A stretch of DNA of 64,000 nucleotides from Candidatus Moraniibacteriota bacterium (GTDB taxonomy: Bacteria > Patescibacteriota > Minisyncoccia > Moranbacterales > DUUL01). The notes beneath the pieces are model-generated. The model was not told where the DNA came from. It saw only the letters and a program-made list of their open reading frames with translations, and ran no database searches. The stretch is from assembly GCA_041596615.1 (NCBI GenBank), contig JBFHIG010000004.1, positions 5,280 through 69,279 of the forward strand, given 5' to 3'. The position numbers and the translations under genes were made by a program. Positions 32,279 to 39,470 of the stretch are shown here, piece after piece; positions within the stretch are counted from its first letter, which is position 1; the number at the start of each line of letters is the position of its first letter.

Positions 32279-33679
32279 CTAGTATTCAATAAATTTTTCT
32301 TTTATAAATTTCAATTGATCTTTCATTAAAAGATTGTTTTCCAATTCTTTGGTTACTTTTTCATAACCATAAATTGCTGTGGAATGATCTCTTCCACCTA
32401 AAGATTTTCCAATTTCAGGAAAGGATAAATTTAATTCTTGTCGCAAGAAATAGATAACTATTTGCCTAGGCTTTACAACTTTCTTTTGTCTAGCCTTACC
32501 TACAATTTCTTCTGGTTTCACATCATAAAAATCACCCACAGATTTAATGATTTTTGAAACAGTTAAGTCTTTTTGTCTATTAATTGAAATAACATCTTTA
32601 GTCATTTCAGTAACATCCTCTATTGTAGGAGTAGTGTTTCTGAGTTGAAAAGTTACTACAATTTTATTTAAAGCTCCTTCTAATTCTCTAACATTATGGT
32701 AGATATTGGTAGCTAAATATTCAACAACGTTTTCAGGTATAGAAAAATTTTTTTCTGATAATTTTTTATTTATAATTGCAATTCTCGTTTCCAAATCAGG
32801 TTTATTAACATCAGCCATCATTCCACCTTCAAAACGAGAGCGTAAACGATCTTCGATTGTTGGGATTGATTTAGGGGCTCTATCGGAACTTAAAATAATT
32901 TGCTTTCCAAGTTGATAAAGAGATTCAAAAATATGAAAAAATTCTTCTTGAGTTTTTTCTTTCCCTGCTAAAAATTGAACATCATCCAGAATTAAAATAT
33001 CTAGGTCAATATAATTATTTTTAAATTCTTTTGCACGAGATTTTTGAATAGCATCCACAAGTTCGTTTGTGAATCTTTCCATACTTACATAGCGGATTTT
33101 AATATTAGGGTTCAGTTTTCCAGCATAATTCCCAGTCGATTGTAAAAGATGTGTTTTTCCAAGCCCCACCCCACCGTAAATAAAGAGGGGGTTATAATTT
33201 TTACCAGGAGCCTCAGCAATGCTGCGACAAGCCGCATAAGCTAATTCATTATTTCCACCAACCACAAAACTATCAAAAGAATAACGACTATTTAAATTTG
33301 ATTTATAAGTATTTCTTTGGGGTTGTTGTTTGGAAAAAGACCTTTGAGAATTATTAATTCTTTTAATATCAGCAACCACATTAGCATTATGATCTGATTT
33401 TTGTTTTTTGATGCCATTTAGATCGGATGGGTCGGAATTACCTATTCTACAAGAAAGGGTGTTTATTTCTCTTCTATATTGTTGAACAGCGTCAATTATT
33501 TGTGTTTTATATTTTTTTTCCAACCACTCCTTGGCAAAAATATTAGGAACGGAAACAACCAGTAGATTTTCGGTAATACCAAAAATAGAGGTACTTTTAA
33601 ACCATGTAGTAAAACTTGCTTTTGAAATTGACAGTTCCATTTCCCCCAACACGGCTTGCCATAGCTCTTCGTTGGTCAT
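32279..33679 (-). CDS. dnaA: Chromosomal replication initiator DnaA
   Basis: WQAVLGEMELSISKASFTTW, Walker A YGGVGLGKTHLL, LILDDVQFL, and a C-terminal DNA-binding domain (..GGRDHSTAIYGYEKV). Confidence 0.95.
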   Translation of the reverse strand: MTNEELWQAVLGEMELSISKASFTTWFKSTSIFGITENLLVVSVPNIFAKEWLEKKYKTQIIDAVQQYRREINTLSCRIGNSDPSDLNGIKKQKSDHNANVVADIKRINNSQRSFSKQQPQRNTYKSNLNSRYSFDSFVVGGNNELAYAACRSIAEAPGKNYNPLFIYGGVGLGKTHLLQSTGNYAGKLNPNIKIRYVSMERFTNELVDAIQKSRAKEFKNNYIDLDILILDDVQFLAGKEKTQEEFFHIFESLYQLGKQIILSSDRAPKSIPTIEDRLRSRFEGGMMADVNKPDLETRIAIINKKLSEKNFSIPENVVEYLATNIYHNVRELEGALNKIVVTFQLRNTTPTIEDVTEMTKDVISINRQKDLTVSKIIKSVGDFYDVKPEEIVGKARQKKVVKPRQIVIYFLRQELNLSFPEIGKSLGGRDHSTAIYGYEKVTKELENNLLMKDQLKFIKEKFIEY

Positions 33680-35823: not shown

Positions 35824-35896
35824 GGGGATATAGCTCAGCTGGTAGAGTGCTCCCATGGCATGGGAGAGGTCTGGGGTTCGACTCCCCATATCTCCA
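35824..35896 (+). tRNA. tRNA-Ala (anticodon GGC)
   Basis: Hand-folded cloverleaf: acceptor GGGGATA/TATCTCC with the G3:U70 Ala identity pair, anticodon loop AUGGCAU, T-loop TTCGACT, discriminator A. No CCA is encoded. Confidence 0.9.
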
Positions 35897-35908
35897 CATT
35901 AAAAAATT

Positions 35909-35980
35909 GCCCCCGTAGTTCAATGGATAGAACAAGGGACTCCTAAGCCTTAGATGTAAGTTCGATTCTTGCCGGGGGTA
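35909..35980 (+). tRNA. tRNA-Arg (anticodon CCU)
   Basis: Acceptor GCCCCCG/CGGGGGT (G1-U72), D-arm GTTC/GAAC, anticodon loop CUCCUAA, T-arm GTAAG-TTCGATT-CTTGC. There is one A31-G39 mismatch. No CCA is encoded. Confidence 0.8.
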
Positions 35981-35995
35981 CATTTATATAGAAAT

Positions 35996-38098
35996 ATGAA
36001 GGATTTAAAAATTCCAAAAAGTGTTCAATATCTTTTAAAAAAGCTTGAATTAGTCAATTTCGAAGCTTTTGTTGTTGGCGGATGTGTCAGGGATCTTTTG
36101 CTGGGAAAAGAGCCAAAAGACTGGGATGTTACAACAAATGCAACTCCAAAGCAAATTTTGGGGGTTTTTGTTGATGGTAAATATGAAAATGAATTTGGAA
36201 CAGTTCTGATTTCTGATAAATACCTCACGGGATATGAAATCGTGTCTGATAAAATTAAAATAAAACCAGAAATAAAGGAAAAAATCATCAAAATAGCTCG
36301 AGAAAAATATCTTGCAAAAATAAAATGCAAAGGACATGGTATTCAACATTCTGAAAATGTGACAAAAAATGCACTTGAGATAGCAGGGACATTTAAAAGG
36401 ATTAACCCCGATTTTATCGAGATTATTGCAATGTTTCATGACGTAGGAAGGAGTGTCACAAAAAATCAGGGACATCAAGGGCATATTGAAGAAAGCCAAA
36501 AACTGTTAGAAAAAGAGACGGCAACTTTTTTGTCAAAAGAAGAAATAAAAGCCCTTAAAAAAGAAATTTTGCACAATTTCAACATCCCAAGAGAAAGTCT
36601 AGAAAGTCAAATACTAACAGAGGCTGATTTGATTGACGGGATTTGCGTGGAAAGGATTGAAGCAATGAATGACACGGCCAAAGAAGAACATAAGAAGTGG
36701 ATTGAGGAATATTATAATAATAAAGGGGCTTTTAGCCAGATAGTTACTGTTCGAGGACAGGAATTGATGGCAGAAGCAATTGATTTATATAACCGAGAGG
36801 GCTTTGATTTTCAAATATCTCAAATAGAAGTTGTTAAAAATGAGAATATTGAAATAACAACATATCGAACAGAGTCGGGATATTCAGATAAAAGACACCC
36901 AGATGAGGTGATATTTGCAAAAAGCCTAGAAGAAGACCTTTCAAGAAGGGATTTTACAATAAATGCCATGGCATTAAAACAACTTGCCCCAGCAAAAGCA
37001 AAGTTAAAAGAAGCTTTAAATCAGGAAAAATATCAAATAATTGACTTATTTGATGGTAAATTGGATCTTCAGAACAAACTTGTGCGTGCAGTTGGGAAGG
37101 CAAAGGAACGTTTTGAAGAAGATGCTCTTAGAATGCTCAGAGCAGTTCGTTTTGCAGCTTCCCTGAATTTTGAAATAGAAAAGAAAACCAAAGAGTCTAT
37201 CGAGAAAAAACTTGTGAATATAAGCTTTGTTTCAATAGAAAGAATCAGAGATGAGTTTGAAAAAATAATTCTCTCAGAGAATCCAGCGAGGGGGGTGGAA
37301 ATGCTTATGGAAACAGGATTAATGAAATATATCATTCCAGAAGTAATAAACACTGTTGGGGTGGAACAAAATCACCATCATTATTATGGAAAATATAATA
37401 CAGTTTATAAACACCTTGTTGCAAGCTTAGCTAAATGTCCTTCAAAAAAAATTGAAGTAAGATTAGCAGCATTTTTACATGACATTGGCAAGCCAGTAGT
37501 TAAGCAGGGAAGTGGGGAAAAAGCAACTTTTTATAACCATGAATATGTAGGTGAGAAAATGGTTAAAAAAATTCTAGAAAGACTTAAATTTACCAGAAAA
37601 ACAATTGAAAAAACAACATTACTTGTTAAAAATCACATGTTTTATTATAACGTTGATGAGGTTGGCGAGGCGGGTGTGAGACGGGTAGTGAGAAAGGTTG
37701 GTGTAAACAATATAAAAGATCTTATTGATGTGCGAATTGGAGATAGACTAGGAAGTGGTGTTCCAAAAGCCGTTCCATATAAATTGAGACATTTTCAATA
37801 TATGGTCGAAAAAGTTTCAAAGGACCCCATATCAGTTAAACAACTTAAAATAAACGGAGATATTCTCATAAGAGAGCTTAAAATAAAGCCTGGCCCACAA
37901 ATAGGTGCTATTTTAGAGGTTTTATTGGCAAAAGCAATAGAAAATCCCAAAATAAACGAGAAGAAAAAACTGCTAAACTTGGCTAGAAGTTTGAAAAAGG
38001 AAGATTTGGTTGACTTGAGGAAACTTGCAAAAAACAAAATTAAAAAAGAAAAAAATAAAGAAGATAGAGAAACAAAGAAAAAACACTGGGTTAAATAA
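35996..38098 (+). CDS. cca: CCA-adding tRNA nucleotidyltransferase (class II, PolyA_pol head) with a C-terminal HD domain and an extra HD-domain insertion in the head
   Basis: FVVGGCVRDLLLGKEPKDWDVTT, ITTYRTESGYSDKRHPDEV, EEDLSRRDFTINAMAL and C-terminal LAAFLHDIGKP. I chose the ATG at 35996 because the track start at 35969 overlaps tRNA-Arg. Confidence 0.8.
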   Translation: MKDLKIPKSVQYLLKKLELVNFEAFVVGGCVRDLLLGKEPKDWDVTTNATPKQILGVFVDGKYENEFGTVLISDKYLTGYEIVSDKIKIKPEIKEKIIKIAREKYLAKIKCKGHGIQHSENVTKNALEIAGTFKRINPDFIEIIAMFHDVGRSVTKNQGHQGHIEESQKLLEKETATFLSKEEIKALKKEILHNFNIPRESLESQILTEADLIDGICVERIEAMNDTAKEEHKKWIEEYYNNKGAFSQIVTVRGQELMAEAIDLYNREGFDFQISQIEVVKNENIEITTYRTESGYSDKRHPDEVIFAKSLEEDLSRRDFTINAMALKQLAPAKAKLKEALNQEKYQIIDLFDGKLDLQNKLVRAVGKAKERFEEDALRMLRAVRFAASLNFEIEKKTKESIEKKLVNISFVSIERIRDEFEKIILSENPARGVEMLMETGLMKYIIPEVINTVGVEQNHHHYYGKYNTVYKHLVASLAKCPSKKIEVRLAAFLHDIGKPVVKQGSGEKATFYNHEYVGEKMVKKILERLKFTRKTIEKTTLLVKNHMFYYNVDEVGEAGVRRVVRKVGVNNIKDLIDVRIGDRLGSGVPKAVPYKLRHFQYMVEKVSKDPISVKQLKINGDILIRELKIKPGPQIGAILEVLLAKAIENPKINEKKKLLNLARSLKKEDLVDLRKLAKNKIKKEKNKEDRETKKKHWVK

Positions 38099-38129
38099 GA
38101 ACAATGAAGTTTTTTAAATTAAAAAAGTG

Positions 38130-38158
38130 TTGACCGGAGCATTTATTTTGTTTATAGT
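38130..38158 (+). promoter_or_regulatory. Sigma-70-type promoter for the tRNA(CAU)/MFS unit
   Basis: TTGACC (38130-35), 17-nt spacer, TATAGT (38153-58). The tRNA starts 17 nt downstream. Confidence 0.55.
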
Positions 38159-38174
38159 AACAAAGTGAGAAAAA

Positions 38175-38247
38175 GGGACCATAGCTCAGTGGTTAGAGCA
38201 GTCGGCTCATAACCGATTGGTCGGAGGTTCAAATCCTCCTGGTCCCA
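38175..38247 (+). tRNA. tRNA with CAU anticodon, either elongator Met or lysidine-type Ile2; it resembles ileX-type tRNAs
   Basis: Acceptor GGGACCA/TGGTCCC (G1-C72, so not an initiator) and anticodon arm GTCGG-CTCATAA-CCGAT. The variable loop TGGTC and D-arm are close to E. coli tRNA-Ile2. No CCA is encoded. Confidence 0.85.
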
Positions 38248-38273
38248 CATCAAGTAAAAATAAAAAAAAATTA

Positions 38274-39470
38274 ATGAACTCTCCATTCAGGAGAACTAAA
38301 TATTTCGAAAGAAAACTTTCTCACGGGTTGGTTTCTTTGCTTACTAGCAGTGTTATTACAAACATCGCAAGTGGTTTTTTTGGTGTTTTTTTACCAATAT
38401 TTCTCTATGAGCTTTTTGATAAAAATATTCAGTTAGTAGTTTTATATTATCTTGCTGGTCAAATTTTGTATTTATTTCTCTTGCCTCTTGGTGCGCAATT
38501 TTTGAATAAGTTTGGATTTAAACATTCCTTACAATTAAGCACTATTTGTGGAGCTTTGTACTATTTTGGCTTAAGAATGTTGACGGCTGAAACGGTTTAT
38601 GTAGTAGTGCCTTTTTTGATTTTTAGTATAACGATTTGGAGAATTTTATATTGGGTTCCTTTTCATGTTGATTTTGCAAAATTTTCTGGTAAAAAAAATA
38701 AAGGAAAAGTTATTGGCCTTATGCAATCAACAGTCAGTCTTATTGGTGTGATTGCGCCAGTTGTTGCGGGATTTATCATTGTTAATTTTGGCTATAATGC
38801 ACTGTTTGTTATGGGGATAGTGCTTTACCTAAGCTCTTTATTGCCGTATATAACAATTCCAAAAACAAGAGAAAAATTTTCCTGGGGTTATTTTCAAACC
38901 TGGAAAAAGTTGTTTAAGAGAAATCACATTGGAACTACTATGGCTTTTATAGCAGATGGAGCAGAGTGTATTGTGGGTGCTGTTATCTGGCCTATTTTCA
39001 TTTTTATTATTTTAAAAGGTGATTACCTAAAAATCGGATCAGTTTCCTCGGCTGTTGTGCTTGTTACAATGACAATGCAATTGTTGGTGGGAAAATATGC
39101 TGATAAAAAACCAAAAAAGAGTATGTTAAGGATGGGAACATTTTTTTATGCCTCTGTTTGGATAGGAAAAATGTTTATTTTAACCTTTTTTCACATTTTT
39201 TTAGCGGATATGTTTCATAAATTTTCAAAAATATTTCTTAGAATCCCCTTTGATGCAAAAACCTATGAAATTGCTGCGGACCAAGGACATTACGTTGATG
39301 AATTCACTGTTTTACATGAGATGGCAATTTCTGTTGGGAAAATTTTAATGTATATTTCCATTGCCATTATTATGTTTTTTGTTTCATTAAAATGGGTCTT
39401 TATATTAGCAGCAATTGCAGCTTTGACTTTTAATATGATTTATTTTAAGGTAAGAGAGAAAAAGACTTAA
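38274..39470 (+). CDS. MFS-type transporter (about 12 TM)
   Basis: 398 aa from the ATG at 38274; the track start at 38217 overlaps the tRNA. TM segments are regularly spaced. The family call rests on topology and general resemblance. Confidence 0.6.
   Translation: MNSPFRRTKYFERKLSHGLVSLLTSSVITNIASGFFGVFLPIFLYELFDKNIQLVVLYYLAGQILYLFLLPLGAQFLNKFGFKHSLQLSTICGALYYFGLRMLTAETVYVVVPFLIFSITIWRILYWVPFHVDFAKFSGKKNKGKVIGLMQSTVSLIGVIAPVVAGFIIVNFGYNALFVMGIVLYLSSLLPYITIPKTREKFSWGYFQTWKKLFKRNHIGTTMAFIADGAECIVGAVIWPIFIFIILKGDYLKIGSVSSAVVLVTMTMQLLVGKYADKKPKKSMLRMGTFFYASVWIGKMFILTFFHIFLADMFHKFSKIFLRIPFDAKTYEIAADQGHYVDEFTVLHEMAISVGKILMYISIAIIMFFVSLKWVFILAAIAALTFNMIYFKVREKKT

Follow-up and report, generated by a model that had tools for sequence, protein, structure and literature searches.

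Class II CCA-adding enzymes are the textbook model of template-independent polymerisation. The third catalytic carboxylate of their head domain is Asp99 in TmCCA (PMC3925840), and a wedge-loop residue (His108 in TRNT1, Phe85 in TmCCA and Phe61 in AaL) stacks on the primer end and abolishes activity when mutated (bioRxiv 10.64898/2026.03.02.709036). According to the same TRNT1 study, strands β3-β5 move as specificity changes from CTP to ATP. At the site considered here, only short turns appear in structural and review papers (PMC3925840; bioRxiv 10.64898/2026.03.02.709036). A gene of this type lies in a 64,000-nucleotide stretch of contig JBFHIG010000004.1 from an uncultured, ultra-small member of the Patescibacteria, a Candidatus Moraniibacteriota bacterium (hereafter, the window), and in its product the short turn is replaced by a large insert. 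A preliminary description of the window had proposed that this insert is an HD-type phosphohydrolase domain nested in the catalytic head. The analysis presented here confirms that architecture and assigns the domain, by sequence and predicted fold, to a subfamily of small HD proteins.

Among the described members of that subfamily, YpgQ is a homodimer that converts (d)NTPs to (d)NMPs and pyrophosphate (PMC8177086). Its residues H29, H58, D59 and D124 hold a catalytically essential mononuclear Mn, and H25 touches the phosphate (PMC8177086). PenF is a nucleoside 5'-monophosphatase, and the characterised members of the subfamily act on free nucleotides.

The host enzyme and its nested insert

The sole long open reading frame (ORF) covering positions 36212-36847 of the window runs on the + strand from either TTG 35969 or ATG 35996 to 38098. 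The TTG start would overlap tRNA-Arg. Residue numbers are given here in the 700-residue frame from the ATG; those of the preliminary description belong to the 709-residue frame from the TTG and are offset by +9. The Pfam domain order is a PolyA_pol head in two stretches, PolyA_pol_RNAbd, HD and tRNA_NucTran2_2. The top NCBIfam models are CCA tRNA nucleotidyltransferase equivalogs, each matching in two stretches, and the best of them (PRK13299, CCA tRNA nucleotidyltransferase) scores 255 bits against a 290-bit cutoff, its match being divided by the insert.

Invariance of the host motifs was judged over 76 homologs. Residues G28-D33, D42, D44 and E286 are all invariant, as in a pol-beta-type head, and so are R317-R318-D319 of motif B and E375-D376-xx-R379 of motif D, which form the protein template in the neck. 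The flexible loop (residues 292-306) is intact, and its sequence TESGYSDKRHPDEV aligns with the loops of 6ibp and 1miv. This loop is required for A76 addition and separates full CCA-adding from CC-adding enzymes. The pattern of the C-terminal HD domain is invariant in insert-bearing and insert-less homologs alike. All of the defining motifs tested are present, and the protein is assigned to class II as a CCA-type tRNA nucleotidyltransferase of the kind that ends in an HD domain; by sequence alone it may be a full CCA-adding enzyme or a partial (CC- or A-adding) one. Glu286 aligns directly onto Glu79 of the Bacillus stearothermophilus (Bst) enzyme in a phmmer alignment to 1miv, and by position would be the third catalytic carboxylate, equivalent to TmCCA Asp99 and TRNT1 Glu121. 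Phe67 of the FGT motif stands at the position of Bst His66 and, from the alignment spacing, is the likely counterpart of the wedge-loop residue.

Between these two residues, positions 36212-36847 translate in frame as residues 73-284 (SDKYL...VVKNEN). In phmmer searches against the PDB, query residues 14-71 aligned with 51-109 and residues 279-446 with 111-263 of the Planococcus CCA enzyme (6ibp), and residues 13-72 with 11-71 and residues 278-446 with 71-224 of 1miv. About 205-207 query residues are thus without a counterpart in either structure, and the canonical turn of about 5 residues (Bst V72-HKGK-A77) is replaced by S73...N284. The claimed separation of about 212 residues between FGTVLI and IEITTYRTE is borne out by these alignments and by the in-frame translation, and the insertion edges expected from comparison with class II enzymes are confirmed. 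In the nearest insert-less homologs (~65% identical), just 18-60 residues separate the two anchor motifs. The insert begins 6 residues past Phe67 and finishes 2 residues ahead of Glu286.

The AlphaFold2 (AF2) model of the full-length protein has a predicted local distance difference test score (pLDDT) of 89.2 and a predicted template-modelling score (pTM) of 0.77, with the blocks of the insert mostly above 90 in pLDDT. Foldseek aligns this model to CCA-, CC- and A-adding enzymes over ~650-700 columns across the insert. The target-normalised template-modelling scores are 0.65-0.74 against 6qy6, 1miv, 3wfr and 4x4w, with the seahorse fold of head, neck, body and tail recovered. Because the full-length model is confident and the Foldseek alignments span the insert, the prediction is that the head still folds as a nucleotidyltransferase with the insert in place, a question that the preliminary description had put to structure prediction. 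DSSP assigns a strand to residues 69-73 of the model, helices to the insert and a strand to residues 284-289, and because of this the insertion site in the model is the turn of the β4-β5 hairpin of the head (TRNT1 naming), not the flexible loop. By the alternation of a beta-meander, the turn that bears the insert should lie at the sheet edge opposite the wedge loop. These positional statements rest on the DSSP strand register, the alignments and published structures. As modelled, the insert folds on its own into an all-helical HD domain, which two linkers of ~17 residues join to the head.

The insert alone matches the Pfam HD family (PF01966) with an E-value of 5.5e-9, and its 36.8 bits exceed the gathering score of 22. 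The HD motifs claimed for it are present as H114xxxH118 (GHGIQH), H148-D149 (FHD) and D211 (EADLID), and the domain is additional to the C-terminal one, which Pfam HD also matches (residues 475-554). An AF2 model of the insert alone is all-helical (pLDDT 91.8, pTM 0.90, most of the core above 90), and its best Foldseek matches are YpgQ (5dqw), 2pq7, 2pjq and 2qgs. A profile of 20 inserts searched against the PDB retrieved 2pq7 (E 4.5e-8), 2qgs, Escherichia coli YedJ (3gw7), 2pjq and Bacillus subtilis YpgQ (5dqv), YpgQ being ranked 6th or 7th in such profile searches. In an hhalign comparison with a YpgQ sequence 100% identical to 5dqv, H114, H118, H148, D149 and D211 align with H25, H29, H58, D59 and D124. 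Taken together, sequence and predicted fold place the insert in the HD superfamily and in its YpgQ/YedJ/2pq7 subfamily. An internal duplication of the C-terminal HD domain was considered and rejected. The hhalign probability between the insert and that domain is 44% (E 2.4e-4, 44 columns), and the insert is not a copy of it because a stand-alone 201-residue HD protein, P0275, is far closer (99%, E 5e-18, 136 columns).

Table 1. Features of the CCA enzyme gene, its insert and the adjacent tRNA genes, in window coordinates. Fractions are counts over 36 insert-bearing sequences.
Feature	Position	Strand	Basis
Class II tRNA nucleotidyltransferase (CCA-adding type) gene	35996..38098	+	700 aa from ATG
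Motif A, GGCVRD (residues 28-33), and catalytic D42-x-D44	36077..36127	+	Invariant in 76 homologs
E66-F67-G68-T69, then strand TVLIS (69-73)	36191..36214	+	1miv alignment; F67, G68, T69 and V70 invariant
Nested insert of 212 aa (residues 73-284), ~205 aa longer than the canonical turn	36212..36847	+	PDB alignments, homolog comparison, in-frame translation
N-terminal linker of insert, residues 73-90, SDKYLTGYEIVSDKIKIK	36212..36265	+	AF2 model; remnants persist in insert-less P0096
Predicted all-helical HD core of insert, residues 91-267, YpgQ/YedJ-like	36266..36796	+	AF2, Foldseek, profile against PDB
H114-G-I-Q-H118, aligned with YpgQ His25 (phosphate contact) and His29 (metal ligand)	36335..36349	+	hhalign; 34/36 at each position
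H148-D149, HD dyad of insert, aligned with YpgQ His58-Asp59	36437..36442	+	hhalign; His 33/36, Asp 35/36
E209-A210-D211, Asp211 the putative last metal ligand, aligned with YpgQ Asp124	36620..36628	+	hhalign; 35/36
C-terminal return linker of insert, residues 268-284	36797..36847	+	AF2 model, translation
Strand IEITTYR, Glu286 at 36851-36853	36848..36868	+	1miv alignment; Glu286 invariant
Flexible loop (TESGYSDKRHPDEVI) and motif B (RRDFTINA)	36869..36967	+	Alignment to solved structures; conservation
Motif D, EDALR, with templating Asp376 and Arg379	37118..37132	+	Invariant; residue roles from PMC3925840
C-terminal HD, H473...H495-D496...H515...H547...D578	37412..37729	+	Pfam HD 475-554; pattern invariant
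tRNA-Ala(GGC) and tRNA-Arg(CCT), directly upstream of the CCA gene, both without encoded CCA	35824..35981	+	
tRNA-Met(CAT), directly downstream of the CCA gene, without encoded CCA	38175..38248	+	

Conservation, inheritance and loss of the insert

The putative metal tetrad H118/H148/D149/D211 is complete in 33 of the 36 insert-bearing sequences, the window protein included. The counts at the individual aligned positions are given in Table 1; H163 is conserved in 34 sequences, R220 in 35, and E203, E209 and N266 in all 36. This level of conservation is seen in a domain whose mean identity across the insert-bearing sequences is 39%, compared with 66% for the body, the insert evolving about twice as fast. 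Between loci L002 and L011 (dS ~0.6-0.7), the ratio of nonsynonymous to synonymous substitution (dN/dS) is 0.146 in the insert and 0.073 in the body; between the window and L001, it is 0.158 and 0.115, respectively. Pairwise insert and body identities are correlated (Pearson 0.79), and there is no pair in which the insert is much more alike than the body. These data show an old, vertically inherited domain under purifying selection. The pattern is what would be expected if most lineages were selected for a metal site that has decayed now and then, and one sequence in which the motif is lost, P0021, has an insert that diverges faster than expected.

The insert is found at the same site, at a length of 195-270 residues, in 27 of the best 120 clusters at 90% identity, drawn from NCBI, JGI, ENA and Logan assemblies. 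It is likewise in frame in fragments P0121-P0123 and in additional loci from genomes and metagenomes, some of them duplicating counted clusters, and the same in-frame site is seen in more than 30 independent assemblies. An exhaustive profile search of 1.84 billion representatives recovered the insert in a CCA-enzyme context in only about 7 (P0001, P0019, P0121-P0124 and P0148), the remaining matches being stand-alone or differently fused HD proteins. The named sources of insert-bearing enzymes are Candidatus Moranbacteria/Moraniibacteriota, Pacebacteria and 'Patescibacteria group' metagenome-assembled genomes (MAGs), and the insert is limited to some Patescibacteria (MAGs of the Moranbacteria and Pacebacteria type). 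A locus search with an alignment of 6 inserts found at least 6 GTDB loci and at least 6 metagenome loci, numbers that come from narrow degenerate patterns and do not measure prevalence.

In a neighbour-joining tree built from body columns only, the insert-bearing enzymes are not monophyletic. Insert-less P0111, P0096, P0112, P0119 and P0054/P0113 nest among them, in a crude tree that does not fix the number of losses. P0096 resembles P0017, its relative with the insert, in the N-terminal linker and in the residues of the C-terminal junction, and because these remain while the HD core is gone, its sequence indicates a clean secondary deletion of the insert. At the insert-less P0113 locus, a downstream tRNA-Met and a transporter of the major facilitator superfamily (MFS) are in common with the window, and P0113 is therefore an ortholog of the window enzyme. 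The insert has evidently been deleted repeatedly in close orthologs. Because orthologs at the same locus have lost it, the insert is regarded as a dispensable accessory module, and CCA addition evidently works without it. The preliminary description had expected the enzyme to be essential, which it probably is; that expectation does not extend to the insert.

The rarity of the architecture (about 7 representatives among 1.84 billion) and its patchy phylogenetic distribution are what might be expected of an artefact, such as a chimeric assembly or a fusion by frameshift, or of a selfish element, such as an intein or a mobile sequence that arrived recently and has no host function. The other evidence argues against such an origin: the same in-frame site recurs in independent assemblies, tRNA synteny is conserved, dN/dS of the insert is ~0.15, insert and body divergence correlate, and the fold is predicted confidently. 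The insert, a K/E/I-rich region, has the same GC content and third-position GC content (GC3) as the body, and no boundary or terminal repeats were found at its edges. An intein or homing element was rejected, as no intein, Hint or homing-endonuclease domain was matched in Pfam by the insert, no splice-junction residues are present and the insert has co-diverged with its host. The edges are Ser73 and Asn284-Ile285, and the C-terminal junction (...KNEN|IEI) is not intein-like, in agreement with what had been said of the boundaries at the outset. A recent mobile insertion was likewise rejected on the basis of host-like composition, lack of repeats and the insert-body correlation (r = 0.79). An artefactual or selfish origin is therefore effectively excluded by the evidence and is hardly credible. 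The conditions under which the preliminary description would have been wrong (a lineage-wide linker without HD similarity, a frameshift or a chimera) do not apply, given the HD match and the number of assemblies in which the insert is in frame.

Possible roles of the nested domain

The closest relatives of the insert outside CCA enzymes are uncharacterised stand-alone HD proteins of ~200 residues from metagenomes (P0125-P0140 and P0275; E 1e-22 to 1e-10). They share H42, H46, H76, D77, H91, H121 and D139 (insert numbering) with the insert; they are independent genes, whereas the insert is part of a CCA enzyme. The P0275 gene sits in a conserved operon (L015 5653-8566 and L016 148-3061) with genes for a tRNA_bind protein (PF01588), the HD protein, an Inositol_P phosphatase, a YfbR-like HD 5'-nucleotidase and a Ham1p_like NTP pyrophosphatase. 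The operon has the look of a cluster for nucleotide house-cleaning, and its first gene encodes the tRNA-binding protein. The same HD subfamily is also fused to NUDIX, Pycsar PycTM and Peptidase_S51 domains (P0249, P0253, P0256 and P0203), and the fusions to PycTM hint at binding or breakdown of cyclic nucleotides by some members as part of anti-phage defence.

We favour, with a probability of roughly 0.5, the reading in which the CCA enzyme carries the insert as an accessory, metal-dependent phosphohydrolase of nucleotides. The domain would be catalytically active and metal-dependent, and its substrate would be a small nucleotide rather than tRNA, as for YpgQ and PenF. It would supply an accessory nucleotide-hydrolysing or house-cleaning activity physically tied to an enzyme that consumes CTP and ATP, and CCA addition itself would be independent of it. 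A small-nucleotide substrate is favoured because the insert falls in the subfamily of YpgQ and PenF, whose activities are known, because the insert is acidic (isoelectric point 5.9, net charge -5) compared with the basic, tRNA-binding body (isoelectric point 9.6, net charge +27), and because of the P0275 operon and the NUDIX and PycTM fusions of the same HD subfamily. A further point in favour is that the C-terminal HD domain, the counterpart of the E. coli repair-type domain, is invariant with or without the insert, which therefore does not replace it.

Several observations weigh against this reading. The kcat/KM values of YpgQ are low (281 and 91 M^-1 s^-1), and free (d)NTPs may therefore not be the true substrate even of the reference enzyme. 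The hhalign probability to YpgQ is only 76%, and the alignment ends at YpgQ residue 132, before the ribose- and base-contact residues R136, F140 and H158; substrate specificity is therefore not transferable from YpgQ. The near-invariant R220 and the conserved H232 and W235 lie downstream, past the YpgQ-aligned region, and are at most candidate counterparts of R136, F140 and H158. Three lineages keep the insert with metal ligands lost, namely P0020 (H118Y, H148Y), P0066 (H148Y) and P0021 (motif lost), and catalysis is therefore not always required. A domain placed on mobile strands, with the wedge residue on one side and a catalytic carboxylate on the other, could equally well act on tRNA or in regulation, and the P0275 operon includes a tRNA_bind protein.

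The tRNA-directed possibility is that the insert heals or trims the tRNA 3' end, removing 2',3'-cyclic or 3'-phosphates or damaged or mis-added 3' nucleotides and passing the end straight on to the nucleotidyltransferase site beside it. In RNase-poor genomes, such a protein could repair tRNA ends unaided. The insert does emerge 2 residues from Glu286 and 6 from Phe67, whose wedge position contacts the primer end, and 6 of the 7 local tRNA genes need CCA addition. The remote matches of the insert include the RNA- and DNA-cleaving HD domains of YhaM, Cas10 and Cas3, and its stand-alone relative P0275 adjoins a tRNA_bind gene. The HD domain of the E. coli CCA enzyme reportedly has phosphatase and 2',3'-cyclic phosphodiesterase activity, as Yakunin and colleagues are said to have found in 2004, and NCBIfam calls enzymes of that type 'multifunctional CCA addition/repair protein'. 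However, a repair-type domain is already there in the invariant C-terminal HD, the insert is acidic, its closest relatives in sequence and fold are small-nucleotide hydrolases, and its turn would lie on the sheet edge away from the wedge loop. Of the roles first suggested for the insert, nucleotide hydrolysis is thus the best supported and repair of 2',3'-cyclic phosphates or 3' ends the less likely; we regard the latter as doubtful, although marginally ahead of the two alternatives that follow. One of these, about equally doubtful, is that the nested HD is a working second active site coupled to CCA synthesis, riding on the mobile β4-β5 hairpin with the wedge residue before it and the catalytic Glu after it. 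The coupling could be by nucleotide-responsive gating of head movement and the CTP-to-ATP switch, or by hydrolysis, directly at the polymerase site, of nucleotides that are wrong or of 3' ends that are damaged. With the C-terminal HD counted in, a single polypeptide would then have three active sites devoted to maintaining tRNA 3' ends, and the enzyme would be a natural case of allosteric or proofreading control in a template-independent polymerase.

The other alternative is a mainly non-catalytic domain with a nucleotide-sensing, regulatory or structural function (dimerisation, for example), which would load the mobile β4-β5 hairpin and tune head movement, and with it the rate or specificity of CCA addition. 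The movement of host strands β3-β5 during the specificity switch is consistent with such a role, as are the retention of the domain by the three lineages with lost ligands, the homodimeric state of YpgQ and the fusion of related HD domains to Pycsar effector TM domains. In Pycsar effectors, the N-terminal domain normally senses a nucleotide. The metal tetrad and His114 are nevertheless conserved in 33-34 of 36 sequences whose inserts average 39% identity, which indicates selection on the metal site itself, and insert divergence is accelerated in the motif-losing P0021. We place this alternative slightly lower still, as improbable, and retain nucleotide hydrolysis as the preferred function.

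Genomic setting and comparison with known systems

Only one of the 7 tRNA genes in the window, tRNA-Ser (which ends GCCA), encodes its CCA end, which confirms the count of 6 out of 7 given in the preliminary description. The ATG of the CCA gene lies 15 nt past tRNA-Arg. The order tRNA-Ala(GGC), tRNA-Arg(CCT), CCA gene, tRNA-Met(CAT) is kept in L001-L003 and partly in L005. Over window positions 35824-39470, the CCA gene sits in this tRNA cluster with the MFS transporter after tRNA-Met, an order conserved in related genomes (L001-L003, L005 and L008). Because the gene is embedded in a tRNA cluster of conserved order, the arrangement suggests that the enzyme is co-transcribed with its CCA-less tRNA substrates. 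No second CCA/PAP paralog and no stand-alone YpgQ-like gene was found within the 64-kb window.

The MFS transporter ORF (38217-39470, + strand) is listed from TTG 38217 and overlaps tRNA-Met; translation probably begins instead at an ATG further downstream (MNSPFRR...). A dnaA gene (Bac_DnaA, DnaA_N, Bac_DnaA_C) is present at 32279-33679 on the - strand, ~2.3 kb upstream of the CCA gene, which probably puts the window close to the replication origin. At L008 4616-4698, just downstream of an insert-less CCA gene and beside a normal tRNA-Met(CAT), ARAGORN calls an 83-nt tRNA with a 4-base anticodon ('cata'). This tRNA could be intron- or insertion-bearing, or frameshift-suppressor-like.

Two further hypervariable insertion sites were seen in the enzyme family, based on the window protein and homologs P0015-P0020, P0042, P0096, P0099 and P0111. 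After motif B (window 36980-37030, residues 329-345), there are ~15 additional low-confidence residues in the window protein, and up to ~60 low-complexity residues elsewhere. The other site, after the RFAxQL helix, reaches up to ~100 residues in P0015-P0020, P0096 and P0111. The family is unusually tolerant of insertions.

In the literature, no CCA-adding enzyme was found to be described with a further domain inside its head. A 2026 survey of CCA2 evolution that includes Patescibacteria calls their enzymes canonical, and its main text does not use the term 'HD domain'. Database labels of the insert-bearing proteins read merely 'HD domain-containing protein' or 'CCA tRNA nucleotidyltransferase'. 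A YpgQ-like HD domain nested in the head of a CCA enzyme is thus a rare, previously undescribed layout, and should be moderately surprising to specialists in tRNA nucleotidyltransferases. It is a clear domain insertion, rather than an end-to-end fusion, in a probably essential enzyme of a reduced-genome lineage. A hairpin that tolerates a ~24-kDa domain under selection is a ready-made probe of head-domain dynamics, and close orthologs with and without the insert are natural built-in controls. The link to a CTP/ATP-using tRNA enzyme also offers a clue to the function of the YpgQ/YedJ HD subfamily, which is poorly understood. If the insert is only a co-expressed house-cleaning hydrolase, the case would add modestly to the range of catalogued domain architectures.

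Inteins and other nested insertions resemble this case in being large in-frame insertions in an essential enzyme near its active site. Unlike inteins, the insert is without a Hint or endonuclease domain and splice residues, and it is predicted to stay in the mature fold as an HD domain and is vertically inherited. YpgQ (5dqv/5dqw), 2pq7, 2qgs, 2pjq, YedJ (3gw7) and PenF share with the insert an all-helical HD fold of ~200 residues. The HxxxH...HD...D metal/phosphate motif of the YpgQ group, which gives the best sequence and fold matches, aligns with that of the insert. Members of this group are stand-alone homodimers, whereas the insert is nested in another enzyme, and identity is just ~18-25%. 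The host itself has the same head, neck, body and tail as class II CCA enzymes with a C-terminal HD domain (the E. coli Cca type, the actinobacterial TIGR02692 enzymes and the CC-adding enzyme of Aquifex aeolicus, 3wfo). Motifs A-D, the wedge residue, the third carboxylate and the C-terminal HD are all common to these enzymes and the window protein, and a putative flexible loop is present. In contrast, solved or described class II enzymes have no domain in the head β-hairpin turn, where the ~5 residues seen elsewhere (VHKGK in Bst) correspond to 212 residues here.

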